Part shown: in pieces, positions 1 to 43,328 of the stretch
Layout: each line of letters opens with the position of its first letter
How positions within the stretch are numbered: the stretch's first letter is position 1
Assembly (NCBI GenBank): GCA_030390025.1
Contig: CM059427.1
Span: 20,150,001 to 20,214,000 of the forward strand
Origin: Squalus acanthias
Lineage: Eukaryota
DNA: 64,000 bases
Direction: 5' to 3'
Position numbers and translations under genes: made by a program
The notes under the pieces: model-generated
What the model saw: only the letters and a program-made list of their open reading frames with translations
What the model was told of the DNA's origin: nothing
The model's database searches: none

Positions 1-138
1 AATACAAAATGATCTCTGACATTTCTTTAGCCAGTCTTTGCGTTCTAAAGTCTGATAGCACAGATGTTGGTGAATACAAGTGTTCAGTCAAAAATGATGT
101 GGGGAGTTGTTCCTGCAGTTCTACAGTCAGTTTGAAAG
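1..138 (+). CDS. TTN: Titin Ig exon 1 (type A; 5'-truncated by window)
   Basis: KYKMISD...DVGEYKCSVKNDVGSCSCSSTVSLK, donor AAAG|gtcag. Confidence 0.93.
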
Positions 139-315
139 GTCAGTTACAATCCAGTTCTAGTAAGTGGTTTCACCTGGATGTTGTGTGGTATCTGTTTCGA
201 TATCATGTTCTTATTAGGTATTATTGAAGTGTTGAAGCATAATATTTTTAATAATTGAACATTGGTTGTATAATTGTAAATTATAACAGGGTATATTCTC
301 TTTACTTTAAACTAG

Positions 316-594
316 AACGACCAACCTTCGTACAAACAATAGAAAATGCAACAGTATTTTCTGGAAATTCTGCTGTATTTCAATGTCTTGTAAGAGGCTC
401 AGTTCCTATAGCTACAAGCTGGAAAAAAGATGGCAAACATGTCAAAGAAGACGATAATGTAAAAATCTCCTTTGAAAACAATATTGCCACATTACAGATT
501 ATTAAGGCTGAAGAAAATCACAGTGGAAATTACATATGTCAGGCAAAGAATGATGCGGGAACTGCAAAATGCTTTGCTACATTGGCCATAATGG
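316..594 (+). CDS. TTN: Titin Ig exon 2 (type B, 279 nt)
   Basis: ctag|AACGA...ATGG|gttag; ERPTFVQ...W...GNYICQAKNDAG. Confidence 0.93.
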
Positions 595-1203
595 GTTAGT
601 AGGAAGTAATAAGCACAAGTATTGTCCACAAATTATTGATCTATGTCTCATAATATTTACTTTTCCACAGTAATATTATTTTAATGTTTTTAAATTAATT
701 CTGTGATCATCAAGGTGAGGAATGTAATAGTTCGCAGTGGGAACATTTTCCATGTCGAGCTGCCATTGTCAGGAACAAACAGTCAGTGTGCCACAGTTAA
801 ATGCAGGATATAGCTCCCTGTACTCTATCCCCAAAATATGCCTCTGGCAAATCCTCAGAAGAGCATTTCCTCTGTATCTGTGTGACATTTTTTCAATTTC
901 CCCCAACATCTATTTTGTGAGGTCCCTGAATTAGATTGTTAACTTAATGCCCAGTTAGGGACGGTTTAGTGCCATTGGGAGCTGGATTGAGACTGCCCAA
1001 ACTCATTTCACACGGAACACTTACAACAAGCATGCAGAAGAGACTTTGATTGCAGCAGTCTTGACTGGATTTGAACTCAAGTCCATGAGGTATCAAACCC
1101 ATTGTGCAGTCTGTTTCCCCCCAAATCTATTATCTTAAAATAGCAATCCGAGCATAAATATTGCATCGTTTTCCTGATGTAAATGATCTAATTTTTCCCA
1201 CAG

Positions 1204-1482
1204 AACCTGCGAATATCATAGAAAAAACTGAGCCACTCACAGTGACTTCAGGAAACCCAGCCATTTTGGAATGTACTGTAGCTGGTACACCAGAATTAAA
1301 AGTTGCATGGTTCAAAAGTGGAAAGCAACTGGAATCAAGTAGAAAATATAAGATGAGTTTTGTGAATAAAGTGGCCAGTCTAAAAATTCTGGCTGTTGGA
1401 ATGGATGACAGTGGTGACTATACTTTTAAGGTCCAGAATGAGTTTGGAGCCAACAGCTGCAATGTTTCTTTGACAGTGTTAG
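1204..1482 (+). CDS. TTN: Titin Ig exon 3 (type C, 279 nt)
   Basis: acag|AACCT...TTAG|gtcag; EPANIIEK...DSGDYTFKVQN. Confidence 0.93.
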
Positions 1483-1617
1483 GTCAGTGATTAATTTGTG
1501 TTGATGGCATCGATTTCATAAAGCATTTCTTTTAAAACCAAAGCTTATCACAAAGTTTAAAATAATTGACACTTTTTTATTGATGTTTTGTGATTTTTTT
1601 CCCTTTATATTGGACAG

Positions 1618-1905
1618 AACAAATAATTGCTCCATTGTTTACAAGAAAACTAAAGGAAATGGGCAGTATTTTAGGATCTGTTGTACGAATGGAATGCAAA
1701 GTTTCTGGTTCTATTCCAATGACCGTTACTTGGTATAAAGCAGACAGTGAAATATCAGCTAGTAACAAATACAAGATGTCATTTCAAGACAACATGCTGT
1801 CTTTAGAGGTCAATGAGTTAGACTTTTCAGATGGTGGAATTTACACTTGCAAAGCAGCAAATTCAGCAGGAAAGGATGAATGCAGTGCTGTCTTAAGTGT
1901 AAAAG
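1618..1905 (+). CDS. TTN: Titin Ig exon 4 (type D, 288 nt)
   Basis: acag|AACAA...AAAG|gtttg; IIAPLFTRKL...DGGIYTCKAANSAG. Confidence 0.93.
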
Positions 1906-2174
1906 GTTTGAGACATTGCTTTGCTACATTTCTTTCTCATCAGTACTATAAGCAAATACTTATTTTCTTCATTTATATTTTTTGTTTGCTACAATAGTGA
2001 AGTAACTAAATAAACCTTTCAACCATCTCTATCTTCTTTTTGTTAAGAGTTCTTAGATTTTTGAAGGATATGTTAGCATGTGTTAATCATAAAGTTGTCT
2101 TTAATCTGATCATGTCTTCCAGTTTGTACATACATCTGAGTTAATTAAATGCTTTTTTCTTGTGTGAATTTTAG

Positions 2175-2453
2175 AGCCCCCAAGCTTTACAGACAAAGTA
2201 ATGTCCCAGGATGTTGTACTTGGTTCTACAGTGCAGTTTAAGAGTGTTGTGAAAGGAAGCACACCACTCTCTACAAAATGGTTCAAAGGGGACAGGGAAT
2301 TGATGCGTGGTGTGGCATATTCTATTTGGAATGAAGGCTCAACATATTTTCTAGAGCTGTTTTCAGCTAAAACATCTGATGCGGGTGCTTACACCTGCCA
2401 AGTCAGCAACGATGTTGGCACAGATGCCTGTTCTGCAGAATTGTTCGTTAAAG
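2175..2453 (+). CDS. TTN: Titin Ig exon 5 (type E, 279 nt)
   Basis: ttag|AGCCC...AAAG|gtgtg; EPPSF...DAGAYTCQVSNDVG. Confidence 0.93.
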
Positions 2454-3095
2454 GTGTGCATTTCTGGATTTTTGCTGCAGTTCTCTTTTATATAAAACTG
2501 TTTTCCCTGCTTTGCTATCTTAAAAGTTTAGAAACATTAACTTGTTTTCTTGATGGTTGGTCAGCTCTAGTGGTAGAACGTTACACTGCCAACCATGGAG
2601 AGGGGCCAATGGTGGTCATCAGGCATTCAAATCTGGGCTGACAGTCAGACGCAATGTTGTTTATTCGGAAACTCTACAGTTTTGCTATGAACTGCTAGGT
2701 GGAGCATCAGGTAATGGTGGGGAATTCTCTCTCAGTTCGAGGAAAACTGGCAAACCCAAGAGTCCTCACTGAAATTGATTTGCATCATCTAATCATAAAA
2801 TGGCAGTGATGGCAACTTTGAGGACGTTCACAGTCTGGAATGCCCTACCGCCAATATTGAGGGAAGAACCATTTTGGTGGAGGCGGCAACCTGATGAAAA
2901 CCATATGAAAAAAGAAATGCTGTTTGCTTTACCATACACAGAGCTCAGTTTGAGTATTAAACTATGTTTTTTTTAAATTTGTAAATTTGGTCTGTAAATG
3001 TTTCGTAGCCAATTATTTATATCTAAATATTAGTTTGAATTGCTTTTGATGATCGTTTAAATTTATATTGAAATTTATAATATTTTGGCTTCTAG

Positions 3096-3377
3096 AACCT
3101 CCTAGCTTCATTAAAAAGCTACATTCTTCAACAATACTAAAGAAAGGAGATTCAGCACGTTTTGAGTGCACTGTAACTGGCACACCTGAAATTAAAGTTA
3201 CTTGGTACAAAAACGGTCATGAAATTATAGCCAGTGGCAGATGTATGATGTCATTTGATGGTTCTGTGGCAATTCTTGAGATGATTGATGTTATTCTGGA
3301 TGACAGTACATGCTACATCTGTGAGGCACGAAATGAAGCTGGCAGTGACAGCTGCAGCACTGAAGTTGGAGTTAAAG
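3096..3377 (+). CDS. TTN: Titin Ig exon 6 (type F, 282 nt)
   Basis: ctag|AACCT...AAAG|gtctg; EPPSFIKKL...FECTVTGTPEIKVTWYK. Confidence 0.93.
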
Positions 3378-3497
3378 GTCTGTAGTAATGTCTTCTTTAG
3401 TCAGTAACAATATATATATGTTAGTTTCTTGAACAGGGATACTATTAGTTCCTGTATTGTGGTTGATTTGGATTTCTTTATTCTGATTACTTTATAG

Positions 3498-3776
3498 AAC
3501 CTCCCAGTTTTAGAAGGAAACTTCAATCTGCTGAAATAGTTACAACCAGTGATTTCACTCTTGAATGTGAGGTGGCTGGTACAGGGCCCTTTGAAGTTAT
3601 GTGGTATAAGGACAATAAACAAATTCGACGCAGCAAAAAATACAAAATGATCTCTGACATTTCTTTAGCCAGTCTTTGCGTTCTAAAGTCTGATAGCACA
3701 GATGTTGGCGAATACAAGTGTTCAGTAAAAAATGAAGTGGGGAGTTGTTCCTGCAGTTCTACAGTCGGTTTGAAAG
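3498..3776 (+). CDS. TTN: Titin Ig exon 7 (type A, 279 nt; mosaic sequence)
   Basis: atag|AACCT...AAAG|gtcag; EPPSFRRKLQ...DVGEYKCSVKN. Confidence 0.93.
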
Positions 3777-3976
3777 GTCAGTTGTAGTATGTTGTCAGAT
3801 ATATTTTCCTTCCGGTGTTTATAGTGCCATTTGAGTTATCTTGTTATCCATTAGAAAATTCAATGCTAAGCTATTTGTGGAAGCATTCTACATTTTACAT
3901 TAAAGCATTTTTAGAACCATAATGAAAAACAGCAAAATATATCCACATATTCATATTACCATTTGTTTTAAACTAG

Positions 3977-4255
3977 AACCCCCAGGATTTATAAAGAAGA
4001 TTGAAAATATAACAACATTGTCAGGGAATTCTATTGTATTCCAATGTCAAGTAAGAGGCTCAAAGCCTATTTATGTAACTTGGATGAAAGATAAAGATGA
4101 TATCCAAGAAGATGGTAATATTACACTGTCTTTTGAGAATAATATTGCTACTCTTCAAATAAATGATGTTGGAGAAAATCATGCTGGGAAATATACGTGC
4201 CAGGTCAAGAATGATGCTGGAACTGAGAAGTGTTTTGGCACATTGTTGGTCGCAG
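3977..4255 (+). CDS. TTN: Titin Ig exon 8 (type B, 279 nt)
   Basis: ctag|AACCC...GCAG|gtcag; EPPGFIKKIEN...HAGKYTCQVKN. Confidence 0.93.
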
Positions 4256-4399
4256 GTCAGTAGGATATTGATTAGTTTAATAGTACCCTCCCCTCCAAAG
4301 TTTATGCTAATTACGAGTGAATTCAGATTCCTTGTCATACATCAACTAAAATGAGACTTATACCAGTAATATATTGAAGAGATTTTTTTTTCCTCGTAG

Positions 4400-4678
4400 A
4401 ACCAGCAAAAATCACAGAACAAGCACAGTCACTCATTGTGACCGCAGGAAATCCCGCAAACCTGGAATGTACTGTAACTGGTACACCAGAACTGAAAGTT
4501 AAATGTTTTAAGGATGGTAATGAAATGGTACCTAGCAGAAAACACAAAATCAACTTTGAGAATAATGTGTTCAGCCTAAAGATTCCTTCTGTTTCTAATG
4601 ATGATACTGCTGAATATACTTTTGAGGTCAAGAATCAGTTTGGAACCAGCAGCTGTAAAGCTTCATTGACAGTATTAG
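4400..4678 (+). CDS. TTN: Titin Ig exon 9 (type C, 279 nt)
   Basis: gtag|AACCA...TTAG|gttag; EPAKITEQ...EYTFEVKNQFG. Confidence 0.92.
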
Positions 4679-5026
4679 GTTAGTGTTTTATTTGCATTTA
4701 GAATTTGACGAATTTAAATATCTAGTGTCATTTGAAAAAAAAATTTGCCCATAAAGAAATCCTGATCACATTGACCAAAACCATATATAAAGGCTTTTAT
4801 TGTTATAATGTTCTTTATGGAGACCAGTAACGATGGGAGTAGACAGATCAGCTGTGTTGGGAGTTTTAAAATAAGTTCTGTTTTGGATGGTCTCAGTAGG
4901 TATATCCTAATAAATATGAAAAATCTTATTGTAAACAATCACAGTGGATTTGATTCATTTAAAGCACTTCCACATTTTTGCTGTTTGAGTTGATTGGCTG
5001 TGCTTTTGTCACTTTATCTTGGACAG

Positions 5027-5314
5027 ATCAACTAATTCCCCCATTGTTTACAAGAAAATTACGAAAAATGGACAGTGTTTTAGGATCTTTCATACATATG
5101 GAATGCAAAGTTTCTGGTTCTCTTCCAATGAGCTTTTCATGGTATAAAGATTACAAAATAATAACAACTAGTGAAAAATACAAAGTGTTATGTCAAGATA
5201 ACACACCAACTTTGGAAGTTAATCAACTAGAGATTTCAGATCATGGAACTTATATTTGCAAAGCAACCAATTCAGTGGGAAGTGATGAATGCAGTGGTAT
5301 CTTAAATATAACAG
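5027..5314 (+). CDS. TTN: Titin Ig exon 10 (type D, 288 nt)
   Basis: acag|ATCAA...ACAG|gtttg; DQLIPPLFTRKL. Confidence 0.93.
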
Positions 5315-5569
5315 GTTTGAAAGATGAACTTGCTTTGTTTCAGTTCCTAATATAGCTTTTGCATATATAAGCACTTGTTCAATTTCTGATTTTTGCTTGT
5401 TGCCCTAAAAAGATAAATATATTTAGTGTTTAAAATTTATTATGCAGTTTATAGTAAGTTCTCATTTTAGCTCTGCTCTGCCATTTTATTTTTGTTGACA
5501 TCTTACCCAATGTGTAAACTAAGTACTATAGGGATCCAATTCTATTATTTTTTTTCACCTGAATTTTAG

Positions 5570-5848
5570 AGCCACCAAGTTTTATAGAAAAACCTGTAGC
5601 CCAGGAAAGTCTACCTGGTTCCGCAGTGCAGTTTAGAAGTGTTGTGAAAGGAACTGCTCCACTATCTATAAAATGGCTGAAGGATGGCAGGGAACTGATG
5701 TCTGGAGCTGATTGTTTCATTTTAAATGAAGGTTCAACAAGTTTACTCGAGTTGTTTTCAGCTAAAGTTTCTGATTTGGGTGACTATACTTGTGAAGTCA
5801 GCAACAAGGTTGGAAGCGCCACTTGTACAACAAGACTATTTATCAAAG
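5570..5848 (+). CDS. TTN: Titin Ig exon 11 (type E, 279 nt)
   Basis: ttag|AGCCA...AAAG|gtgtg; EPPSFIEKP...DLGDYTCEVSN. Confidence 0.93.
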
Positions 5849-6125
5849 GTGTGGAATTTAGGTTCACTTGTTAAACCATTGTGAAACACTGTTAAAAATT
5901 CAGACTTTTTCATTTTGAAAAGTTTACATGTCTGTAAAGTTATTTTTCTTTGGTTTGTTATACACTTTTCTCTCGTTTGTTATTTTTAATGTTGCTATCG
6001 TGCTGTGTGTTATCTTCCTTTATTCCTTTATATGTTGCATGTGTTTCATTGTTCCTTTTTATGTTGTATGGGTTTGTTTCAGACTTTTACATTTATAATT
6101 AAGTTTACTACATTTTTTTCTCTAG

Positions 6126-6407
6126 AACCTCCTTATTTTATTAAGAAGTTAGATCTTACAGCAATATTTAAAAAAGGAGAGACAGCAAGTTTTGAGTGCA
6201 AAGTAACTGGCACACCTGAAATCAAAATCACTTGGTTCAGCAACTATCGTGAAATTAGAGCCAGTGAAAAATACAGAATGTCATTTGTTGATTCAGTGGC
6301 AATATTTGAGATTGCTGACATAAACCTGGATGACAGTGGGAATTATTCCTGTAAAGCACAAAATGAAGCTGGCAGTGAATCTTGTGACATTAAAGTAACA
6401 GTTAAAG
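6126..6407 (+). CDS. TTN: Titin Ig exon 12 (type F, 282 nt)
   Basis: ctag|AACCT...AAAG|gtgtg; EPPYFIKKL...DSGNYSCKAQNEAG. Confidence 0.93.
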
Positions 6408-6651
6408 GTGTGTAAAAATTCCTAGTTACATTTTCCAACACAATTTGATTGTTTTTTTCTGAAAATGTTGCAAGTGCCTTGTGTTTATCAATGGAATATT
6501 TGGGAGCCTTCACTTTAACAGCCTGTTTTTATAACTTCTTTTTTATTGGCCAATAAAAATTATCATTCAATTGCCACTAGCTCCTTAGTTCAAACTGATG
6601 AATGAAATGTAATGTAAACATTTTACTAGAACATTTTAAATTCGACTCCAA

Positions 6652-7134
6652 AGGACCGATTTTAATTACCGGTGGGAAGCTGGCAGATGCAGACCGTGCG
6701 GCAACAAGGTAAGTCCGGGAGTGGGACTTTCCAAGGGTCTCACTGCTGCTTAGGGGAGAAGCCCAGGGCATTGAGGCCCAGACATTCTATGTCGGGCCAG
6801 GAGGAGCTCTCATGCTCCTCCTGGTCCCATTGTAGAAAGATGTTTAATTTGTCTCGAAGACCTCGCTATCTTCCCGACAACTTTACCTGGCATGCAGCCG
6901 TGGCAGGCATCCTGCTCAGAAGAACATTAACGTGCCTTTTTTATCCCATGTGCATCATTGGACCCCAATTTTCATTTATCGGTGAGGTTCCTGCTGTTAT
7001 CCAATGGACATCTCAATCATCGCAAAAACCAGTTGTGTTAAAATGGGGAATAAGCGGGAACAGAGTGAGAATTGGAGATGCTCCATTTTAACTGCTCCCT
7101 CTCTTTGCTGCTGGTTGGGAGATTTAAAGTTCCC
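6652..7134. mobile_element. Degenerate non-autonomous DNA element (MITE-like)
   Basis: GC-richer block in an AT-rich intron, with imperfect inverted ends (GGACCGATTTTAA ... TTAAAGTTCCCC) resembling other MITE termini in the window. Confidence 0.45.
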
Positions 7135-7461
7135 CATTTAATTCTTTTTAAATGCTAAGAGTCATGTGCAACTAGCCAAAATTATTAATGTTCAGGGCTG
7201 ATAATACCATTGAAAATTGTAGATATGTATATAAAAAAATGAAGGGTATTTATTGGAGTATTTTACTAATCTGCATTAAATAATAGCTGTAGGAGAAAAC
7301 ATCTGTGTGTTGGTTTGTCTCCCATGATTAGTTATCACACCTTAAAATAAGAATCACGCAAATATTTTTTCACGTCAATGGTTATTGTTGGGAGTCACTG
7401 TGCAAAACCTGAATTTAGTGGCCTGTGATTTGTAAACCATGTTAATGTGTTTACTCTTTAG

Positions 7462-7740
7462 AACCTCCCACATTTACGAAGAAGCTTGAACCAGTTGAGG
7501 TAGTAAAAACCAGTGATTTCACTCTTGAATGTGAGGTGGCCGGTTCAGGTCCCTTTGAAGTTATGTGGTATAAGGACAATAAACAAATTCGACACAGTAA
7601 AAAATACAAAATGATCTCTGACATTTCTTTATCAAGTCTTTGCGTTCTAAAGTCTGATAGCACAGATGTTGGTGAATACAAGTGTTCAGTCAAAAATGAT
7701 GTGGGGAGTTGTTCCTGCAGTTCTACAGTCAGTTTGAAAG
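7462..7740 (+). CDS. TTN: Titin Ig exon 13 (type A, 279 nt)
   Basis: ttag|AACCT...AAAG|gtcag; paralogue of exon 1. Confidence 0.93.
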
Positions 7741-7918
7741 GTCAGTTACAATCCAGTTCTAGTAAGTGGTTTCACCTGGATGTTGTGTGGTATCTGTTTC
7801 GTTATCATGTTCTTATTAGGTATTATTGAATAACTTGAAGCATAATATTTTTAATAATTGAACATTGGTTGTATAATTGTAAATTATAACAGGGTATATT
7901 CTCTTTACTTTAAACTAG

Positions 7919-8197
7919 AACGACCAACCTTCGTACAAACAATAGAAAATGCAACAGTATTTTCTGGAAATTCTGCTGTATTTCAATGTCTTGTAAGAGG
8001 CTCAGTTCCTATAGCTACAAGCTGGAAAAAAGATGGCAAACATGTCAAAGAAGATGATAATGTAAAAATGTCCTTTGAAAACAATATTGCCACATTACAG
8101 ATTATTAAGGCTGAAGAAAATCACAGTGGAAATTACATATGTCAGGCAAAGAATGATGCGGGAACTGCAAAATGCTTTGCTACATTGGCCATAATGG
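7919..8197 (+). CDS. TTN: Titin Ig exon 14 (type B, 279 nt)
   Basis: Near-identical to exon 2; GT-AG bounded. Confidence 0.93.
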
Positions 8198-8806
8198 GTT
8201 AGTAGGAAGTAATAAGCACAAGTATTGTCCACAAATTATTGATCTATGTCTCATAATATTTACTTTTCCACAGTAAAATTATTTTAATGTTTTTAAATTA
8301 ATTCTGTGATCATCAAGGTGAGGAATGTAATAGCTCGCAGTGGGAACATTTTCCATGTCGAGCTTCCATTGTCAGGAACAAACAGTCAGTGTGCCACAGT
8401 TAAATGCAGGATATAGCTCCCTGTACTCTATCCCCAAAATATGCCTCTGGCAAATCCTCAGAAGAGCATTTCCTCTGTATCTGTGTGACATTTTTTCAAT
8501 TTCCCCCAACATCTATTTTGTGAGGTCCCTGAATTAGATTGTTAACTTAATGCCCAGTTAGGGACAGTTTAGTGCCATTGGGAGCTGGATTGAGACTGCC
8601 CAAACTCATTTCACACGGAACACTTACAACAAGCATGCAGAAGAGACTTTTATTGCAGCAGTCTTGACTGGATTTGAACTCAAGTCCATGAGGTATCAAA
8701 CCCATTGTGCAGTCAGTTTCCCCCCAAATCTATTATCTTAAAATAGCAATCCGAGCATAAATATTGCATCGTTTTCCTGATGTAAATGATCTAATTTTTC
8801 CCACAG

Positions 8807-9085
8807 AACCTGCGAATATCATAGAAAAAACTGAGCCACTCACAGTCACTTCAGGAAACCCAGCCATTTTGGAATGTACTGTAGCTGGTACACCAGAATT
8901 AAAAGTTGCATGGTTCAAAAGTGGAAACCAACTGGAATCAAGTAGAAAATATAAGATGAGTTTTGTGAATAAAGTGGCCAGTCTAAAAATTCTGGCTGTT
9001 GGAATGGATGACAGTGGTGACTATACTTTTAAGGTCCAGAATGAGTTTGGAGCCAACAGCTGCAATGTTTCTTTGACAGTGTTAG
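8807..9085 (+). CDS. TTN: Titin Ig exon 15 (type C, 279 nt)
   Basis: Near-identical to exon 3. Confidence 0.93.
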
Positions 9086-9222
9086 GTCAGTGATTAATTT
9101 GTGTTGATGGCATCGATTTCATAAAGCATTTCTTTTAAAACCAAAGCTTATCACAAAGTTTAAAATAATTGACACTTTTTTTTATTGATGTTTTGTGATT
9201 TTTTTCCCTTTATATTGGACAG

Positions 9223-9510
9223 AACAAATAATTGCTCCATTGTTTACAAGAAAACTAAAGGAAATGGGCAGTATTTTAGGATCTGTTGTACGAATGGAAT
9301 GCAAAGTTTCTGGTTCTATTCCAATGACCGTTACTTGGTATAAAGCAGACAGTGAAATATCAGCTAGTAACAAATACAAGATGTCATTTCAAGACAACAT
9401 GCTGTCTTTAGAGGTCAATGAGTTAGACTTTTCAGATGGTGGAATTTACACTTGCAAAGCAGCAAATTCAGCAGGAAAGGATGAATGCAGTGCTGTCTTA
9501 AGTGTAAAAG
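9223..9510 (+). CDS. TTN: Titin Ig exon 16 (type D, 288 nt)
   Basis: Near-identical to exon 4. Confidence 0.93.
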
Positions 9511-9779
9511 GTTTGAGACATTGCTTTGCTACATTTCTTTCTCATCAGTACTATAAGCAAATACTTATTTTCTTCATTTATATTTTTTGTTTGCTACAAT
9601 AGTGAAGTAACTAAATAAACCTTTCAACCATCTCTATCTTCTTTTTGTTAAGAGTTCTTAGATTTTTGAAGGATATGTTAGCATGTGTTAATCATAAAGT
9701 TGTCTTTAATCTGATCATGTCTTCTAGTTTGTACATACATCTGAGTTAATTAAATGCTTTTTTCTTGTGTGAATTTTAG

Positions 9780-10058
9780 AGCCCCCAAGCTTTACAGACA
9801 AAGTAATGTCCCAGGATGTTGTACTTGGTTCTACAGTGCAGTTTAAGAGTGTTGTGAAAGGAAGCACACCACTCTCTACAAAATGGTTCAAAGGGGACAG
9901 GGAATTGATGCGTGGTGTGGCATATTCTATTTGGAATGAAGGCTCAACATATTTTCTAGAGCTGTTTTCAGCTAAAACATCTGATGCGGGTGCTTACACC
10001 TGCCAAGTCAGCAACGATGTTGGCACAGATGCCTGTTCTGCAGAATTGTTCGTGAAAG
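9780..10058 (+). CDS. TTN: Titin Ig exon 17 (type E, 279 nt)
   Basis: Near-identical to exon 5. Confidence 0.93.
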
Positions 10059-10264
10059 GTGTGCATTTCTGGATTTTTGCTGCAGTTCTCTTTTATATAA
10101 AACTGTTTTCCCTGCTTTGCTATCTTAAAAGTTTAGAAACATTAACTTGTTTTCTTGATGGTTGGTCAACTCTAGTGGTAGAACGTTACACTGCCAACCA
10201 TGGAGAGGGGCCAATGGTGGTCATCAGGCATTCATTCAAATTTGGGCTGACAGTCATACTCAAT

Positions 10265-11086
10265 CGCTGGAATTTTAATTTGAGGCGGGGAGAGAGCAGA
10301 GGGGCTGGAAAGCGGTCTGGAAACCCGAATTTAATGACAGGGCCTGATTAGCGTTTAGAATCCCTGTTTTGCATCTGCAGCCAGCCAGATGGAGAGGCTG
10401 GCTGGCTGGCTGTCACACGGGTAGACCTGCGGCACCAGGCCGCAGAGAGGAGAGCTGGGATGTGGGGGAGTCGGGGGGAATCAGTAGCCAGAGTGTGATC
10501 GGGGACCTGAGGGGGAAGGTTTGAAGGCTGAAGGATTATCAGGGGCCGGAGGCGGGAAGTTGGCAGGTGATTGGAGGCCGGAGGAGGAATTGGAGGCTTG
10601 GGGGTGGGTGGGGGTGCGGTTGGAGGCTGGAGGCGGTCCAAGGTCCATCCAAGGATCGAAAGCCAGAGATTGGATTGAAGTTCGGAGGCCTCAGAGGGGA
10701 GATTGCGGTGAGATCGGAAGGGCCGGGGTGTGTCCGATCGCGGGGCGTTGGCGAAGCAGGAACGCTGGATCCAGTGAGTAAGTGGAAAGGCACTTAACTC
10801 CTGCATCCAGCAGTCCTCGCCCTCCTTTAGCTGGCTGGTTCCCCGAGGCCCGGGAATCCTGCCCGCCCACTGTTAAATTTAAAATGGAGCTACAAAATGA
10901 GGCACGCAGCCTCATTGTAATTTTTAAGTGCAAACCCATCTCCTGCGAGCGGGTTGGCCGCTCGCCCCCGTCTCGCCTCCATTAAAACCGGAAGTGGGCG
11001 GGTTAGGGTTGGGATTCAGATTTTTAACTCTTCAACCTCCCACCTGACCCCAACCCACCCATTTTTGGGGGTTAAAATTACCCTCC
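10265..11086. mobile_element. PIF/Harbinger-like MITE, family 1 (G-rich interior)
   Basis: Absent from the paralogous site at ~2655. Imperfect TIRs (GGAATTTTAA / TTAAAATTACCC). Shares internal motifs (CAGCCAGATxGAGAGGCTGGCTGGCTG, CGCCTCCATTAAAACCG) with 37084-37969. Confidence 0.8.
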
Positions 11087-11528
11087 AAGTTCTTTATTAG
11101 GAAGCTCTACAGTTTTGCCATTAACTGCTAGGTGGAGCAGCATGTCATGGTGGGGAATTCTCTCTCAGTTCAAGGAAGAACTGGCAAACCCAAGAGTCCT
11201 CACTGAAATTGATTTGTATCATCTAATCATTAAAATGACAGTGATGGCAATTTTGAGCAATTTCACAGCCTGGAATGCCCCACCCCCAATATTGAAGGAA
11301 GAACCATTTTGGTGGCGGCAGCAATGAGAGAACTTGATAGCACATGAAAAAGGAAATGCTGTTTGCTTTACCATACACAGAGGTCTAATTGAGTATTGAA
11401 CTTTGATTTTCTTAAAGATGTAAATTTGGTCTGTAAATGTTATGTAGCCAATTATTTATGTCTAATTAGTAATTTGAATTGATTTTGATTATGCTTTAAA
11501 TTAAATGTAGTAATATTTTGGCTTCTAG

Positions 11529-11810
11529 AACCTCCTAGCTTCATTAAAAAGCTACATTCTTCAACAATACTAAAGAAAGGAGATTCAGCACGTTTTGAGT
11601 GCATTGTAACTGGCACACCTGAAATTAAAGTTACTTGGTACAAAAACGGTCATAAAATTATAGCCAGTGGCAGATGTATGATGTCATTTGATGGTTCTGT
11701 GGCAATTCTTGAGATGATTGATGTTATTCTGGATGACAGTACATGCTACATCTGTGAGGCACGAAATGAAGCTGGCAGTGACAGCTGCAGCACTGAAGTT
11801 GGAGTTAAAG
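11529..11810 (+). CDS. TTN: Titin Ig exon 18 (type F, 282 nt)
   Basis: Near-identical to exon 6; GT-AG bounded. Confidence 0.93.
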
Positions 11811-11930
11811 GTCTGTAGTAATGTCTTCTTTAGTCAGTAACAATATATATATGTTAGTTTCTTGAACAGGGATACTATTAGTTTCTGTATTGTGGTTGAT
11901 TTGGATTTCTTTATTCTGATTACTTTATAG

Positions 11931-12209
11931 AACCTCCCAGTTTTAGGAGGAAACTTCAATCTGCGGAAGTAGTCAGAAGCAGTGGTGTCACTCTTGAATG
12001 TGAGGTGGCCGGTACAGGGCCCTTTGACGTTATGTGGTATAAGGACAATAAACAAATTCCGTCTAGTGAAAAATACAAGATGATCTCTAAGAACTTTTTA
12101 ATTAGTCTTCATATTTTGAAGTTGGATATTTCAGTTGTGGGTGACTATAAATGCACAGTAACAAATGATGTGGGAAGCTGCTCCTGCACTTGTGGTGTCA
12201 GTTTAAAAG
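11931..12209 (+). CDS. TTN: Titin Ig exon 19 (type A, 279 nt)
   Basis: atag|AACCT...AAAG|gttag; EPPSFRRKLQ...GDYKCTVTNDVG. Confidence 0.93.
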
Positions 12210-12449
12210 GTTAGTTGCATTGTGATAGGCAAGTACTTTTACTTGTAATGTTGACATAAACAATATGTATTGCTATTTTATTATAATCAGGAAAGAGGAC
12301 AAAGCACAGTTTTAGCAGCTAACATGTAATGTTGACATTTTTAGGGAATAGGCCCCAAAAACAGTATTTATTGCTATTTTATTATAATCATGAAAGCGGA
12401 CAGAGCAAATCACTCATATTTATTTCCGTGCCTGTTTATCTTGAACTAG

Positions 12450-12728
12450 AACCCCCATCATTTATAAGGAAGATTGAAAATGTTACAACCATTGTTGGAA
12501 ATTCTGCTGCGTTTCCATGCCTTGTAAAAGGCTCACAACCTTTATCTATAAGTTGGATGAAAGGTAACGATGATATCAAAGAAGATGATAATATAGCAAT
12601 TTCTTTTGAGAACAATATTGCTATCCTGCAAATTACAGCCGTTGAAGCAAAACATGGTGGGAAATACATTTGTCAAGCCAAAAATGATGCAGGGATTGAG
12701 AAATGTTTTGCTACGTTGATAGTAACAG
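12450..12728 (+). CDS. TTN: Titin Ig exon 20 (type B, 279 nt)
   Basis: ctag|AACCC...ACAG|gttgg. Confidence 0.93.
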
Positions 12729-12885
12729 GTTGGTAGGAAACATTTAGAAATATGATTGGCTAAAATGTAAAAGTCAGTTACTGCTAAGTTCAAATTTATT
12801 TATCATACTAATGTGCAAAAGAAGACCACATTAAAATATTAAACATATTGACAACATTACTCAGCACAGTATTTTTTCTTAACAG

Positions 12886-13164
12886 AATCTGCAAAAATTG
12901 TTGAGAGAGCAATGTCACACAGTGTAACTGTAGGAAATCCAGCAATTTTGGAATGTACTGTAGCTGGTACACCAGACCTAAAAGTTAAGTGGTTTAAAGA
13001 TGGAAAGGAGCTCACATCCACCAGAAAGTGCAAATTGAGCTTTGAGAAAAACATGGCCAGTTTAAAGATTCTGTCGGTAGAGATGTCGAGTAGTGGTGAA
13101 TATACGTTTGAGGTTCAGAATGAATTTGGAGTCGACAGCTGCAAAGCTTCCTTGACAGTATTAG
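12886..13164 (+). CDS. TTN: Titin Ig exon 21 (type C, 279 nt)
   Basis: acag|AATCT...TTAG|gttag. Confidence 0.93.
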
Positions 13165-13291
13165 GTTAGTATTTTAACTGTATTGAGAGATTTGGATGTG
13201 AAAAGGAATGAGGTTAAGGAATGAAAACAAAGTTGGTATTTTAGGCTACTTTTACATCTTAAGCTTACAGGTTGTGCTCTGTGTTGTACAG

Positions 13292-13579
13292 ATCGATTAA
13301 TTGCTCCAACATTTACGAAAAAGTTAAAGGATATGGGTACTACATTGGGGTCTTTCATGACCATGGAGTGCAAAGTATCTGGTTCTCTTCCAATGAAAAT
13401 TCATTGGCATAAAGCTGGGAAGGAGATATCAGATAGTAGCAAATATAAACTATCACAACGAGATAACACTTCATCTTTGGAGATTAATCAACTAGAAATC
13501 GCAGATGGTGGACTTTATACTTGCAGAGTATCAAATGTAGCAGGAAGTGATGAATGCAGTAGCACACTTACTGTGAAAG
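13292..13579 (+). CDS. TTN: Titin Ig exon 22 (type D, 288 nt)
   Basis: acag|ATCGA...AAAG|gtttg; DRLIAPTFTKKL. Confidence 0.93.
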
Positions 13580-13791
13580 GTTTGAAATATTGTCTTTGTG
13601 TTTTCTACTCAATTTCTTAACATGATAGATGTCAGTCGGATTATATTTTAACCTCACCAGAATTTCTTGAAAGTTTGAAATAATTACTCTGAATTTATTA
13701 AAGAGTTATATAGTTTATAACACAAAAGTTGATGAATCTTTATACGTGCTCTTTATCGCAACAAATATATTTTTTCTTCAATGAATTTTAG

Positions 13792-14070
13792 AACCACCAA
13801 GATTTATAGTAAAGCCAGTGTCACAGGAGGTCCCCCCCTGTTCTGCAGTTCAGTTCAAGAGTGATGTGAAAGGAACACCTCCCCTGTCTTTCAAATGGTT
13901 TAAGGATGACAAGGAACTAAGTTCTGATGCTACATGTTGCATTGTGATGGAAGGTTCATCCAGTTTTGTACAACTGTATTCAGTAAAACATTCTAATACA
14001 GGATACTATACTTGCCACGTCACCAATGATGTTGGCACAGATACTTGTACAGCAAAATTGTTTGTGACAG
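13792..14070 (+). CDS. TTN: Titin Ig exon 23 (type E, 279 nt)
   Basis: ttag|AACCA...ACAG|gtgtg. Confidence 0.93.
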
Positions 14071-14535
14071 GTGTGGATATTTTGTGTTGTGTTGGTATAT
14101 TTTATCAGTGTCTTGTTTGTGTTTTACTTGTCAATGTCTTTAAGTTGCTGAGTATTCTCAGTACATACAAATCTTCTTTCTTGTCTGTGTTCTATGTTAG
14201 CATCTTGTGTTCTTCTTGACATCAATTGTGTGTACCCATCTTATACTCTTTATCACATCAATTCTATATTAGCTTCTTATACTCTTCTTGATCTCGAGAA
14301 TATATTATCACCTTGTACTCTTAATTAAAGCAATTCTATTGTATGATTCTTATATATAACACTAAAAAAATTATATTTGATTTATATATGTCTTTTTAAA
14401 AGAATTTGTAACATTCTCTTATGCGATTTGTATTCAGTATTCCACTTCTTTCCACATATTTCACAATTCCAATTATTCCAAAACGTAACATTCTTGTAAC
14501 TCTGGCACTAAATATATTCTATTTTGGTTTCCCAG

Positions 14536-14817
14536 AGCCCCCAACTTTCACACAGAAGCTGGAACCATCCAAAGTACTGAAGAAGGGTGAATCAGCACAT
14601 TTTGAGTGCAAAGTGACTGGCACGCCTGAAATCAAGGTTTCATGGTTCAAGAATGATGTTGAAATTAGTGCTGGTAACAAATACAAAATGCATTTTGATA
14701 ATTCTGTAGCAGTTCTTGAAATCATTGATGCTGATTTGGAAGATAGCGGTGATTACATTTGTGACGCTCAAAATGAAGCTGGCAGTGTCAGTTGCAGTGT
14801 AGCTGTTACAGTCAAAG
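14536..14817 (+). CDS. TTN: Titin Ig exon 24 (type F, 282 nt; start of ten-domain module)
   Basis: ccag|AGCCC...AAAG|gtagg; EPPTFTQKLEPSKVLKKGE. Confidence 0.93.
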
Positions 14818-14923
14818 GTAGGTAGCTTTTTTCAGGTGCATATGAAAATGTTTCTCCAAGTTATAATGCAAGTATCTTTTCTTCATGAATGCATAAATGA
14901 GACAAATTATGATCTTCTTACAG

Positions 14924-15202
14924 AACCTCCTGTTTTCAGTAAAACACTTGAGGCAGTTGATGTACTAAAAGGCTCTGATATAATACTGCAGTGTGAATTC
15001 AGTGGTACATCTCCTTTTGAAGTTACCTGGTACAAAGACAAACGGCAAATCCGAGCAAGTAAAAAGTATAAAATAACTTATGAAAACCATGTAGCAAGTC
15101 TTCATATTCTTAAAGTAGAGACTCCAGACATAGGGGAATACATGTGCACGGCCAAGAATGATGTGGGAAGTGACAATTGCACTGGCACATTAAATCTAAA
15201 AG
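14924..15202 (+). CDS. TTN: Titin Ig exon 25 (type A, 279 nt)
   Basis: acag|AACCT...AAAG|gttgg. Confidence 0.93.
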
Positions 15203-15314
15203 GTTGGTAAATTTTCCAAATTGTACATTTAAATGTTACTACTGTTACAATTTTAGGAACACATTTCTTTAAGTTTATGTTTCACATGTAAGGAATATTT
15301 CTTCAATTCTTCAG

Positions 15315-15593
15315 AGCCAGCAGTATTTGTGAAGAAACTTTCAAACATTTCTTCTGTGCTTGGAGAGTCTGTAACCTTACAAGCTACCATTAAAGGCTCA
15401 GAACCAATTAATGTAACATGGATGAAGGAAAAGGAAGAAGTGAAAGATAATGAGTACATGACTATTACCTATGAACAAAACATTGTTACGTTACATATTG
15501 CAAAAATGGAGCTAGTTCACGCTGGAAAGTATGCTTGCCAAATCAAAAATGATGCTGGAATGCAAGAGTGCCCTGCTACAGTATCACTCCTGG
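15315..15593 (+). CDS. TTN: Titin Ig exon 26 (type B, 279 nt)
   Basis: tcag|AGCCA...CTGG|gtcag. Confidence 0.93.
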
Positions 15594-15723
15594 GTCAGTA
15601 ACCTAATGTCAATATATTAGATGTTTCTAGAATTTAATTCATTTTTGAAAGGATTACCAACTATTATTCTATTTGCCAATGTATATCAAGAATATTTTGT
15701 AAAAAGAAGTTTTCTTCTTCTAG

Positions 15724-16002
15724 AACCTGCCACAATAGTGGAAAAAGCAGAATCTGTCAGTGTAACCATAGGAGATCCAGCAACTTTGGAATGCATTGTT
15801 AGAGGCACACCAGAACTAATAGCAAAATGGTTGAAAGATGGTCAAGTGTTGGCATCTGGTAGAAAATATAAGATCAGTTTTCGAAATGAGATTGCCAGCC
15901 TAAAGATTCTGTCTGCAGAGAAGGCAGACAGTGGTGAATATACTTTTGAAGTCCAGAATAACGTCGGTAGCAGCAGCTGCAAAGCATCAGTCAGCATTCT
16001 AG
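15724..16002 (+). CDS. TTN: Titin Ig exon 27 (type C, 279 nt)
   Basis: ctag|AACCT...CTAG|gtttg; EPATIVEKAES. Confidence 0.93.
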
Positions 16003-16107
16003 GTTTGGTTCACTACTTTTTCTTATTCATACTGTTTTCTTTAGGATTTCTTAAATATTTTTTTTAAATCCCTTTATAATCATGGTTTATTGGTGTAACT
16101 TAAACAG

Positions 16108-16395
16108 ATCGAATTATTCCACCAACATTTACAAGAAAATTAAAGAAAGTGGACGGTATCTTGGCTTCTCCCATCCAAATGGAGTGCAAGGTGTCTGGAT
16201 CACTGCCCATTGCTATGTCTTGGTTCAAAGACGGGCAGGAGATTGTACATGGAGAAAAATATCATCTTGCATTTGGAGATAATACATGTGATTTGAAAGT
16301 AAATTCATTGGAAATGTCAGACGCTGGCAATTATACATGTAAAGCAACAAATTCTGCAGGAAGTGATGAATGCAGTGGTGTCTTGACCGTGAAAG
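16108..16395 (+). CDS. TTN: Titin Ig exon 28 (type D, 288 nt)
   Basis: acag|ATCGA...AAAG|gtcag; DRIIPPTFTRKL. Confidence 0.93.
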
Positions 16396-17001
16396 GTCAG
16401 TTTATTTCTTAATGAAGATTCCAGTATTTTCCTTACCCCTTGTATATAAATTCTGTTTATCATTTGTATTCTAAATGATTTTTGTTTGGTACTCCACTGG
16501 TCTATAAGTGTGTAAATGTCACCATGTGACATGACACTGAGCCTTGTCGAGCAAGAAGGTCGCAAGTCAGTGGTCGGAGACATTATAATTGGCCTCCGTG
16601 CCCTGAGATAGAAAATGGGGGGAAAAAAATCAACCAGCAGTCCTGTCGTCACTTTCTTGGGACTCCAGCTTGAAAGTGCACTGATGTGGGTGTTGGGTCA
16701 GGACAGAATCGGGCTCAGCTATGATCATTTTCATGGTCAAATGGCCTGCTGATGCCGACCTTCCAGACTTAGCCATGAAGAATGGTCAGTTGGGTGAGGT
16801 ACTGGAAGGCTGCTATTACCTGTGGATTAGCAGGAGTCACTGCCATCAGGAAAGAGGGTAACAAAGGGGTAATAATTGTGAAAAAAGTAGAAAAACTGAT
16901 TTTGTTTTTATTCATAACAAAAAATTAAGATCTTAAATTTAAATCTCTGGTAAATTTATAACTTAATGTTACATTACACTATTTTGCTTTGACCCCTTTA
17001 G

Positions 17002-17280
17002 AACCGCCCTCATTTGTGAGCAAACCTGATCCTCAGGAAGTTTTACCTGGTTCGACAATGAGATTTGTAAGCGTTGTTACTGGAACAGTTCCACTGAAAG
17101 TGAAATGGTTTAAAGGTAGCACTGAACTGGTACCAGGAAGGAAATATCAAATTTCTTTAAGTGACTCAACAGCAGTACTAGAGCTACTAAACGTAGATCC
17201 TTCCCAAAGTGGAGACTATATCTGCCAAGTCAGTAATGAAGCTGGCAAAGATTCTTGTACAACAAAATTATTTGTGAAAG
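17002..17280 (+). CDS. TTN: Titin Ig exon 29 (type E, 279 nt)
   Basis: ttag|AACCG...AAAG|gtttg; EPPSFVSKPDP. Confidence 0.93.
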
Positions 17281-17368
17281 GTTTGTAAAGTACAGATTTA
17301 AAGAAAGAACATTTTGCTTGAGTTGCTAGGATTTTTTTGACAACTGTTTTCATATGTATCTTTACCAG

Positions 17369-17647
17369 AACCAGCAGTATTCCAGAAGAAATTGAAGGAT
17401 TCTAGTGTTGTACTGGGAAAGTCAGTTTGTCTAGATTGCACATACTCTGGTACCCCAGAAATCAAAGTCATCTGGAAGAAGAATGGATCAGATATATTCC
17501 AGTCTGAAAATCATATTATAACTACTACTGAAACATCTTGTATTTTGGAGATTCTCAACAGTGTTAGAGACGATGGAGCAAAATACACTTGTGAGGTAGA
17601 AAATGATGCTGGAAGGGACACCTGTCATGCTGAAGTGAAAATACTAG
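17369..17647 (+). CDS. TTN: Titin Ig exon 30 (279 nt)
   Basis: ccag|AACCA...CTAG|gtttg; CTYSGTPEIKVIW. Confidence 0.93.
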
Positions 17648-17825
17648 GTTTGTTCCTAATCATGCATCAACATTTTGTTTCTTTGGCTTTCTTTTTTTAT
17701 ATGTATAATATGCCTCCTGGGAAGATGGCACGGGGCGGGATGGGTACCCGTCCCCAGATTCTGCCCTTTTCCCGGCGGTCCCGCCTCCAAACCCACCTCC
17801 CCAGGGCTGGCAAATTCGCCCCCAA

Positions 17826-18712
17826 AGAGTCTGCAAAGGGATATAGATAGGTTAAGTGAGTGGGCAAAAATTTGGCAGATGGAGTATAATGTGGGAAAAT
17901 GTGAGGTTATCCACTTTGGTAGGAAGAATAAAAAGCAAATTATTATTTAAATGGAGAGAGACTACAAAATGCGGCGGTACAGAGGGATCTGGGGGTCCTC
18001 GTACATGAAACACAAAAAGTTAGCGTGCAGGTGCAGCAAGTAATTAGGAAGGCAAATGGAATGTTGGCCTTTATTGCAAGGGAGGTGGAGTATAAAAGCA
18101 GGGAAGTCCTGTTACAACTGTACAAGGCGCTGGTGAGACCACACCTAGAGTACTGCGTGCAGTTTTGGTCTCCTTATTTAAGGAGGGATATACTTGCATT
18201 GGAGGCAGTTCAGAGAAGGTTCACTAGGTTGATTCCTGAGATGAAGGGGTTGTCTTATGAAGAAAGGTTGAGCAGGTTGGGCCTATACTCATTGGAGTTT
18301 AGAAGAATGAGAGGTGATCTTATTGAATCATGTAAGATTCTGAGGGCTTGACGGGGTAGATGCAGAGAGGATGTTTCCCCTCGTGGGGGAATCTAGAACT
18401 AGGGGGCATAGTTTCAGAATAAGGGGTCACCCATTTAAAACGGAGAGGAGGAGGAATTTCTTCTCTCAGAGGGTCGTGAATCTTTGGAATTCTCTACCCC
18501 AGAGAGCTGTGGAGGCGGAGTCATTGAATATATTCAAGGCAGAGATAGACAGATATTTGAGCTACAGGGGAGTCAAGGGTTATGGGGAGCGGGCGGGAAA
18601 GTGGATTTGAGGCCAAGATCAGATCAGCCATGATCTTATTGAATGGTGGGGCAGACTCGAGGGGCCAAATGGCCTACTCCTGCTCCTATTTCTTATGTTC
18701 TTATGTTCTTAT
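17826..18712 (+). mobile_element. CR1-clade LINE (HER1-like), 5'-truncated; RT C-terminus and 3' tail
   Basis: LQRDIDRLSEWAKIWQMEYNVGKC and LVRPHLEYCVQFWSP motifs with frameshifts; ends in (TTCTTATG)n tail. Confidence 0.92.
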
Positions 18713-18760
18713 ATTCTTTAATTGTTGATCTATATTGATTATACCTTGATTATACCTTAG

Positions 18761-19039
18761 AACCACCAACATTTGTCCAACATTTAGAGCCTCTGGAAAT
18801 AACAGTAGGAGACTCAGGATCTTTTGAATGCACACTTACTGGAACACCTGAAATCAATGTGGCTTGGTACAAAGGAGACACGAAACTGAGAGCCACCCCT
18901 AATTGCAAAATGGAGTTTGTGAACAATGTTGCAAAAATGGAACTGAAGAAAGCAACTTTGAGTGACTGTGGGGAATTTATATGCAAAGCTGAAAATAAAA
19001 TAGGGGCCTGTTCATCAAAGGCCATGCTCACTGTACAAG
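18761..19039 (+). CDS. TTN: Titin Ig exon 31 (279 nt)
   Basis: ttag|AACCA...CAAG|gtgat; EPPTFVQHLEP. Confidence 0.92.
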
Positions 19040-19178
19040 GTGATATTGCTTGACAGATTGGCATAAGTCTGCATGCCATACATTTCTCTGTTTTAATCTT
19101 TTCATTGTGGTTCAAAAAAATCATTTCCTGAATAATCACAGTTTTGATGAACTCATTCTGTAACTGTTTATTTTACAG

Positions 19179-19466
19179 AACTTAAAACTGCGCCTTCTTT
19201 CACAAGAAAAATTCAGAATATGGAAGGCACTCTTCATCTTCCAGTGACATTTGAGTGTCGTATTTCTGGTTCAGCTCCTATTGAAACTTCTTGGTTTAAA
19301 GATGGAGTAAAATTGGCCAGTGCAGAAAACTTAATTATATCTTTCATAGAGAACACAGCATCTCTTACAATTCTTAACACTGAAATGGATCATGCTGGTG
19401 AATACACTTGCAAAGCTTCCAACATGGTTGGAGATGCTTCATGTAGTTCCAAACTAACTCTGAAAG
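19179..19466 (+). CDS. TTN: Titin Ig exon 32 (288 nt)
   Basis: acag|AACTT...AAAG|gtttg; APSFTRK...PVTFECRISGS. Confidence 0.93.
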
Positions 19467-19645
19467 GTTTGTTGGTTAAAATATTTACTAAATATCTTCA
19501 GCTTTTTGTCTTTATTATCCTTTACCTTAATTTTGTAGTATTTACACTTTAATATCTGCTTCTTTTACCTGTCATTCCTAGATGTTATTGCTTTACTATT
19601 GATAGTATTATGACAGAAAATAATTATTTCTTGTTATATTTTTAG

Positions 19646-19933
19646 AACCTAGAGTTGCCCCTGTATTTGACAAAAAACTAGAACCAGTAGAAGTTACCAC
19701 TGGGCAAAGTGTAGAGCTTGAATGCCATTTAATTGGCTCTCGCCCAATTAAAGTTATTTGGCTGAAGGGTGACAAAGAGATTCGATCAGGTGGCAATTAC
19801 AAGATAACCTGTGCGGAAAATACACCTCATCTGACAATTCTAAAAGCAGACAAGGGAGACTCTTGCCAGTACATTTGTGAGGCCAGCAATGATATTGGAA
19901 ATGACTCATGCAAAACGCAAGTGACTGTAAAAG
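19646..19933 (+). CDS. TTN: Titin Ig exon 33 (288 nt; end of ten-domain module)
   Basis: ttag|AACCT...AAAG|gtatt; EIRSGGNYKITCAENTPHL. Confidence 0.92.
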
Positions 19934-20074
19934 GTATTGCTCAATATCAGTTATTATTCTTTTCCCCCTGGTACAGTATTCCAGGCTAAACTTTATTCAT
20001 TTGGAACAAGAATGTTGCTACTTGTTAGTTTTACTTCTTCATTATGATTATTTTCCAGTTACTTGTTCAGTTTT

Positions 20075-24089: not shown

Positions 24090-24410
24090 GTATGGGGTAG
24101 ATGTGAAATAGATTGTCATTGTTATGTGAATAATATAAGGATGCTAAAAGCTTTTACTAATTATGTTTTATTAAGCTTGTCCAACTTCTTTAGTCTTACT
24201 GCATTAAGGGAAAAATCAGTGCTGGATCGAGATCTTTTACTTGAAGTATTGAAAGACCGAGGAGGTCCCCGCAGCCATATAGGTGACACTGGATGGTTGG
24301 AGCAACCACTAGCCAATGGCTAGGTTTACCATTAGCAGTGCCCAAGCCAGGTTCTGTCATTGGTCAAATATGCCTCAAGCTGCCAATAGTAATTTTTTGT
24401 GAGTCAAATT

Positions 24411-32329: not shown

Positions 32330-32393
32330 GTAAAAGAGCAGTTAGCTTTGGAATGTATTATCAAAGGGGTATTGGTTTAAGTGGAGAATCTAT

Positions 32394-43074: not shown

Positions 43075-43328
43075 GTACAAAAGAAGCCATGTGTTTCATA
43101 CTAGCATTGTTCTTTTGATAAATGTGTATTCATCTTGTAATTATCTTGGAAAGTAGTTCTGTTTTAGAGGCTTCAAATTGCCAATGCTCTGCTACTTGTT
43201 CATCTTATTTTACGATATGTGTTGTTTTAATTGTTTGCTTGTGAATTTGTGCCATTCTATTACTGCATTGTGTTGTTCTTGTACTTATTGATACTGTCAT
43301 TATGCTTAGTTAGGTATTAAAACACATA

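Follow-up and report, generated by a model that had tools for sequence, protein, structure and literature searches.

A probably old tandem repeat of 12 immunoglobulin domains in the titin gene of Squalus acanthias, its copies likely kept near-identical by gene conversion

The tandem immunoglobulin (Ig) spring of the titin gene of Squalus acanthias carries a repeat whose unit, about 7.76 kb long, consists of two 6-Ig super-repeats and so of 12 Ig exons; the genome assembly contains three in-frame tandem copies of it. Quite probably the repeat goes back to an old unequal crossing-over, and its copies have likely been kept near-identical by recurrent gene conversion between them. The window analysed is a stretch of 64,000 nucleotides (assembly GCA_030390025.1, contig CM059427.1, positions 20,150,001 to 20,214,000, forward strand), and the analysis took in a further 120 kb on its upstream and 80 kb on its downstream side (264 kb in all). 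Coordinates are window positions, and negative values lie upstream (contig position minus 20150000). SRn designates the nth 6-Ig super-repeat and A-F the domain position inside it; these labels are our own. Repeats were mapped by self-BLAST, exon scan, and segment-by-segment and site-by-site comparison. Copy 1 starts about 11570 bases upstream of the window, copy 2 about 3800 bases upstream, and copy 3 occupies 3960..11965.

The array begins about 11.6 kb upstream of the window and ends at 11965. In self-BLAST, -11567 to -1060 matches -3803 to 6699 with 99.2% identity (shift 7764, 10.5 kb), and -903 to 2655 matches 6700 to 10264 with 98.2%. An earlier note on this DNA had described a near-identical duplicated module of six Ig domains, with 1 to about 3532 recurring at 7603 to about 11965. 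The duplication and its extent were reproduced, as 1-2655 matches 7603-10264 with 98.9% and 2656-3784 matches 11089-12217 with 88.9% identity, and similarity stops about 35 nt into the exon at 3498/11931 (2 differences in 35 nt, then 55 in 244). The size and number of the modules had to be corrected to 12 Ig domains and three copies. The stretch 3498-6407, taken in the note for a different module between the copies, is part of the unit: 3960-6699 is found again 7764 and 15527 bases upstream with 98–99% identity. The components of the array inside the window are as follows; exons were placed by the exon scan where no other basis is given.

1..3976, + strand: copy 2 of the 12-Ig unit, 3' part only (99.2% identity over 10.5 kb with a shift of 7764)
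1..138, + strand: 3' part of Ig exon SR7B, the exon start being 140 bases upstream of the window
316..594, + strand: Ig exon SR7C
1204..1482, + strand: Ig exon SR7D
1618..1905, + strand: Ig exon SR7E (0/288 differences from SR9E)
2175..2453, + strand: Ig exon SR7F
3096..3377, + strand: Ig exon SR8A (near-identical to SR10A)
3960..11965, + strand: copy 3 of the 12-Ig unit, its homogenised part continuing into SR10A and the beginning of SR10B (self-comparison)
3977-4255, + strand: Ig exon SR8C, present twice more upstream
4400-4678, + strand: Ig exon SR8D, present twice more upstream
5027-5314, + strand: Ig exon SR8E, present twice more upstream
5570-5848, + strand: Ig exon SR8F, present twice more upstream
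6126-6407, + strand: Ig exon SR9A, present twice more upstream
7462-7740, + strand: Ig exon SR9B
7919-8197, + strand: Ig exon SR9C
8807-9085, + strand: Ig exon SR9D
9223-9510, + strand: Ig exon SR9E
9780-10058, + strand: Ig exon SR9F

The six exons of the copy pair lying in the window have 0–2 differences per 279–288 nt, and their short introns differ by 0–2.3%. The note's statement that exons and most introns are almost identical is thus valid for these parts; the F-A intron has 43 differences in 396 sites (10.9%), and the divergence is clustered. All five coding changes reported there were found: I>M (SR7C vs. SR9C), K>N (SR7D vs. SR9D and SR5D), T>I and E>K (both SR8A vs. SR10A), and A>S. 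The K>N allele (1325 / 8928 and -6438) is in copies 1 and 3 and absent from copy 2. At the level of protein, identity is 98–100% at a lag of 12 domains, while adjacent domains inside the repeat are on average 30% and at most 40% identical.

Divergence between the copies is distributed as a mosaic of identical tracts and diverged islands, with non-coding DNA included. Copy 1 has 31 differences from copy 2 in 6898 sites (0.45%), and between copies 2 and 3 there are 123 substitutions in 6717 sites. The latter are placed very unevenly, with 1 in 4000-6199, 16 in 6400-6599, few in 7400-10199, and 55 in 11089-11528; over 3958-6400 there are 2 substitutions in 2432 sites. The longest identical runs, 1542 bases for copies 2/3 and 1546 for copies 1/3, were compared with 5000 shuffles, in which the mean longest runs were 289 and 257 and the maxima 722 and 740, respectively; none of the 5000 reached the observed run. 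Between copy 3 and the other two, the exons differ at 8–9 of 2811 sites (0.3%) and the introns overall by 2.9–3.4%. The F-A intron behind the insertion listed below differs between its two types by 43/396 to 55/429 sites, or 11.7–14.1% when corrected. Four intronic features mark the islands.

2656..3095, + strand: unconverted intron stretch of the type without the insertion (copies 1 and 2 identical, 0/435; 55/429 different from copy 3)
6408..7461, + strand: intron from which copy 3 lacks 156 bp at 6699/6700 (3.6–5.8% divergence around the deletion)
10265..11088, + strand: 824-bp GC-rich high-copy insertion in copy 3 only, at which homogenisation stops
11089..11528, + strand: unconverted intron stretch of the type behind the insertion (segment comparison)

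The diverged islands flank the 156-bp deletion and the 824-bp insertion, both in copy 3, and this placement suggests that indels block conversion. The insertion has a summed contig depth in thousands in the sequencing runs. Clear terminal repeats or a target-site duplication were not found around it by the repeat finder.

Public sequencing runs allow the repeat to be followed outside the assembly. Twenty of the 23 runs listed contain part of the window, and five were compared as contigs: X2 and X3 are two further samples (S1, S2) of the same organism, and X6, X7, and X9 come from organisms B, C, and D, respectively, relatives 2–4% distant. No RNA run containing part of the window was among those listed, which carries no information on expression. 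X3 was taken at about 55/100 of the run, and gaps in its coverage are uninformative. Alleles were compared in 30 selected rows among the best-supported 80. Copy number was estimated as the depth of unit contigs over that of flank contigs and read against a 31-mer model, which expects 1.8–1.9 for two near-identical copies and 2.8–2.9 for three.

Organisms B and C each have a gap-free contig over 3754-3987 with 10 other letters, and this must be the intron at the junction of the copies because its counterpart between SR4B and SR4C is 29 nt shorter. Organism B has both types of the F-A intron, on contigs 2621-3109 (19 other letters) and 11054-11542 (16 other letters); each is about 4% from its counterpart here, while the types differ from each other at 55/429 sites. 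The left border of the 824-bp insertion is also present in B and the right border in B and D. The 156 letters deleted in copy 3 are retained in B and C. In B, C, and D, the unit appears as single unbranched contigs of 1.3–3.8 kb at about twice the flank depth. The unit/flank ratios are 1.61 (X2), 2.09 (X3), 1.91 (X6, organism B), and 1.94 (X9, organism D), and for X7 (organism C) the depths are 9–11 vs. 4.4–4.8. Since the junction intron, both intron types, and the insertion borders are shared, the duplication predates the species compared. Judged by the unconverted intron, it would have a relative age of at least about 4–5 times the distance to organisms B and D (11.7–14.1% vs. 1.7–3.0%). An absolute date was tried with a pedigree mutation rate of 7e-10 per generation (PMC10587355) and rejected, as 13% would correspond to about 90 million generations, which is implausibly old given the six repeats of the elephant shark.

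In the homogenised tracts, the paralogs of this organism are closer to each other than to the orthologs of its relatives. The stretch 8868-10225 has 1–4 differences in 1356 sites among the copies here, compared with 34 of 1340 for organism D and 27 for B. In 3080-3530, with 451 sites, there are 4 differences among the copies, compared with 15 for B and 12 for C. The divergence of this organism from B and D is 1.7–3.0%. All three assembly copies have allele 6397A, which is absent from the contigs of all four runs covering the site, while the K allele at the 1325/8928 site is in the contigs of all four runs covering it. Each lineage would thus keep its copies alike, as in concerted evolution; the copies were likely homogenised by gene conversion, and the duplication is not a recent event. 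Of the two alternatives offered in the note, active homogenisation is supported by the patchy tracts running through introns; recent expansion does not fit the basic duplication, which relatives share and in which an intron is 11–13% diverged.

The junction between copies 2 and 3 lies in two neighbouring features.

3498..3776, + strand: Ig exon SR8B, a hybrid located where the duplicated units join, its first ~90 nt mostly SR10B-like and the remainder SR4B/SR5B-like (site-by-site comparison)
3777..3976, + strand: junction intron of 200 nt, present only where the unit is duplicated (24/170 different from the SR4B-4C intron, from which it derives)

Hybrid exons SR6B and SR8B, one at each junction of the array, are identical. 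The first 31 nt of the hybrid have one difference from SR10B and 6–8 from SR4B/SR5B; nt 32-62 fit both poorly; from about nt 125 the exon follows SR4B/SR5B, with 8–13 differences per 31 nt from SR10B. The intron 5' of the hybrid exon is the SR10A-B intron (1/120 different). This is the anatomy that would be expected of an unequal crossover between B exons two super-repeats apart. As a separate observation, SR4B (-12000 to -11722) differs from SR5B, SR7B, and SR9B at only 16–19 of 279 nt, while other B pairs differ at 57–84 nt, and the introns flanking SR4B are about 27–32% apart from their SR5B/7B/9B counterparts. Exon-limited conversion in the 6-Ig register may also have acted there.

The following course of events is proposed. 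SR4B would have mispaired with SR10B, a same-class exon two super-repeats apart, and a crossover in or near them would have duplicated SR4C to SR10A, formed the hybrid exon, and turned six 6-Ig super-repeats into eight. The reading frame would have been preserved because all exons are symmetric phase 1. The 7.7-kb copies could then pair out of register and undergo recurrent conversion, with large indels acting as barriers and leaving behind old diverged islands that would record the true age. The same mispairing would also give unequal exchanges, such as a recent expansion from two copies to three. With a contour length of 4–4.5 nm per Ig domain, each unit is predicted to add 12 folded domains in series, or about 50 nm, in skeletal-muscle isoforms, and the I-band spring would become longer and softer (more compliant). 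In the elephant shark, the middle-Ig segment is mostly spliced out in heart and mostly retained in skeletal muscle (PMC12241362). Identical neighbouring Ig domains misfold longer than natural neighbours (PMC4660218); here identical domains are 12 apart and neighbours are about 30% identical, so this penalty would be avoided.

Three other explanations of the near-identity were weighed. Purifying selection on old copies, with no conversion, would agree with exons being more alike (0.3%) than introns overall (2.9–3.4%) between copy 3 and the others, and with conversion tracts picking up again near exons. It is nevertheless unlikely. Several entire introns are identical, and a single substitution in 4000-6199, introns included, means that selection on the protein alone is insufficient. 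Moreover, orthologous positions drift 2–4% between species while paralogs stay together, and the protein identity of older 6-Ig paralogs is no more than about 61%, so titin has no need of identical domains. A recent, lineage-specific duplication would explain the 8–9 exon differences in 2811 sites by young age, but it is very improbable given the 11–14% diverged intron inside the unit, the clustering of divergence far beyond chance, and the junction, insertion borders, and doubled depth common to organisms 2–4% away. Long tracts with zero differences, and 6397A in all three copies, which could stem from cross-polishing, might point to a false duplication or polishing artefact over the entire repeat. 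This is hardly credible, because contigs of other samples and species carry the junction-specific sequence, both intron types, and a collapse at about double depth. The falsely duplicated haplotypes considered in the earlier note do not account for the two-copy state, which is ruled out as an assembly product by the junction contigs in B and C. Some points weigh against old duplication with conversion and against a third copy all the same. Contig depth is no true copy number, and the ratios range over 1.55–3.3 with the choice of flank baseline, so they support the two-copy reading but do not decide it. The near-identity of the copies in B, C, and D is deduced from collapse and depth. Contigs lose rare variants, and an allele missing from them may still be present in the sample. 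None of the database fragments P0001, P0002, and P0007 (elasmobranch) and P0008 spans the junction, and the evidence of age is confined to organisms A-D. Finally, a two-copy state fits each of the five runs compared (of 23 listed) and a three-copy state fits none of them, which makes it less likely that the third copy is typical.

The third, middle copy is accordingly a separate matter: it may be a copy-number variant of the individual or a false duplication. The assembly has three copies, and contig depth points to about two in samples S1 and S2. The 5' end of the middle copy is similar to copy 3 and its continuation to copy 1, a mosaic that both a real unequal exchange and a join of haplotypes would produce. 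We lean slightly towards a real copy. It is quite possible, however, that only the two-copy state is real and old and that the third copy is an assembly error, in which haplotypes were joined in tandem register. Both further samples have ratios (1.61 and 2.09) below the 2.8–2.9 expected for three copies, and contigs of the junction-type intron are at single-copy depth in X2 and X3 (10.7 and 14.1 vs. about 16). Copies 1 and 2 differ by 0.45%, which is near the 0.1–0.4% between samples in unique flank, and a false tandem duplication of four exons is on record (PMC8081667). On the other hand, the 264 kb examined contain no N or gap, and a second contig with the region was not found among the best candidates. 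Over 1770 aligned sites, among them those of the unconverted intron, copy 1 has no difference from copy 2; in that intron X2 and X3 each have 3 other letters in 355, and two haplotypes would more likely differ there. X2 and X3 also carry alleles absent from every assembly copy and are probably no test of the assembled individual. A wider proposal, possible if slightly less probable than not, can be made: a recombination-active 12-Ig cassette in a group of sharks, homogenised over several speciations and still expanding and contracting, by which individuals would differ in 12-domain blocks (eight vs. ten super-repeats). This would be a heritable polymorphism of I-band spring length that would tune the passive stiffness of skeletal muscle.

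By sequence, the locus is a shark-type titin gene, and the repeat lies in its middle-Ig super-repeats before N2A and PEVK, in agreement with the tandem-Ig spring recognised in the note. An uninterrupted series of 60 open Ig exons (-28886 to 14070) came out of the exon scan; they form ten 6-Ig super-repeats and are followed by one 10-Ig super-repeat, two more Ig, and then N2A and PEVK exons. Each symmetric phase-1 exon of about 279–288 nt encodes one I-set Ig domain. AG/GT ends and an open frame are present in 60/60 exons of SR1-SR10, with two 5' ends of the E class placed inexactly. The six domain classes recur periodically, with protein identity of 61% at lag 6 vs. 30–34% at lags 1–5. The best PDB matches of exon 14536-14817 are titin structures 3B43, 2RJM, and 2RIK. 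The repeat exons are 84–95% identical to elasmobranch fragments (Mobula, Mustelus, Heptranchias) and about 65% to elephant shark, and the elasmobranch fragments examined agree with the order and type of the super-repeats. Protein searches for the junction in other elasmobranchs (3/37 and 8/58 candidates passed; P0001-P0003, P0007, and P0008 examined) did not find it. No extra Ig exon was found in the 5.7-kb gap between SR2F and SR3A, and an Rfam scan of 1-20000 gave 0 matches. Subtracting two units leaves six super-repeats, the elephant-shark count; one extra unit gives eight, and this assembly ten. Two blocks lie at and beyond the 3' end of the array.

11529..14070, + strand: super-repeat SR10 (A 11529-11810, B 11931-12209, C-F 12450-14070), unique from about 11966
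14536..19933, + strand: single 10-Ig super-repeat after SR10 (exon scan, PDB match; layout as in PMC12241362)

Several further features were observed at the locus. The core tryptophan of the C strand is a usual feature of I-set domains; in SR8D (4400-4678) and both its upstream copies this position is a cysteine (VKCFKDG), which is also found in Mobula and Heptranchias fragments P0007 and P0008. The substitution may make the domain mechanically weaker or redox-sensitive, and the repeat would multiply the effect. A second tandem duplication was found by self-BLAST in the PEVK region (56787-57827 / 57826-58864, 1039 bp, 98.0%), and both copies contain a stretch resembling the PEVK exon near 49448. 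Upstream, -54993 to -51725 is a tandem repeat of about 610–640 bp (83–94% identity) between two Ig-like stretches of the N2B/Novex region. Two families of intronic interspersed repeats, 71–94% identical among copies, are at 24410-25291, 32393-33283, and 43323-44270 and at 17831-18712, 20075-21939, and 40131-41981.

Unequal exchange between same-class exons is a likely mechanism, here caught in progress, by which the Ig spring of titin grows in vertebrates. Conversion would keep such a block prone to recombination for a long time, near-identity of such blocks would be no proof of young age, and short-read or collapsed assemblies may lead to underestimates of Ig number. If real, the third copy would offer a natural experiment on tandem-Ig number vs. 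slack sarcomere length and passive tension, and also a test of the rule against identical neighbouring Ig domains (PMC4660218).

Hanashima et al. 2025 (PMC12241362) have already described how 6-Ig super-repeats expanded in cartilaginous fish: the elephant shark has six of them and the whale shark eight, compared with three in human and zebrafish. Duplication in blocks was argued there to avoid similar neighbouring domains. The connectin/titin layout described there is the same as here: N-terminal Ig, 6-Ig super-repeats, one 10-Ig super-repeat, and two C-terminal Ig, with one Ig per exon. That article treats six-domain blocks at the protein level, and near-identical copies, a 12-Ig unit, homogenisation of introns, and within-species copy number are not described in the parts of it consulted. 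The present assembly has ten super-repeats and the two-copy state eight, and no relation to the eight of the whale shark is assumed. In the literature searched, which left most subscription journals outside, neither a 12-Ig titin unit homogenised through introns across species nor ten super-repeats were found. In type, the shark unit is a multi-exon in-frame block repeated at about 99% identity, like the triplicate region of nebulin (NEB) and the PEVK duplication of human TTN. The segmental duplication of human TTN exons 172-198 (PMC9142044) is likewise a multi-exon block present three times in the titin spring, with recurrent copy-number variation in healthy people and patients, but it encodes disordered PEVK, whereas the shark unit encodes folded Ig domains. 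The human PEVK duplication has been dated to about 1–3 million years (PMC12241362), while that of the shark predates several species splits. The human nebulin triplicate region (PMC9109913, PMC9142044, PMC7754682) is a copy-number-variable multi-exon triplication as well, but of another gene and domain type, and belongs to a thin-filament ruler and not to a spring.

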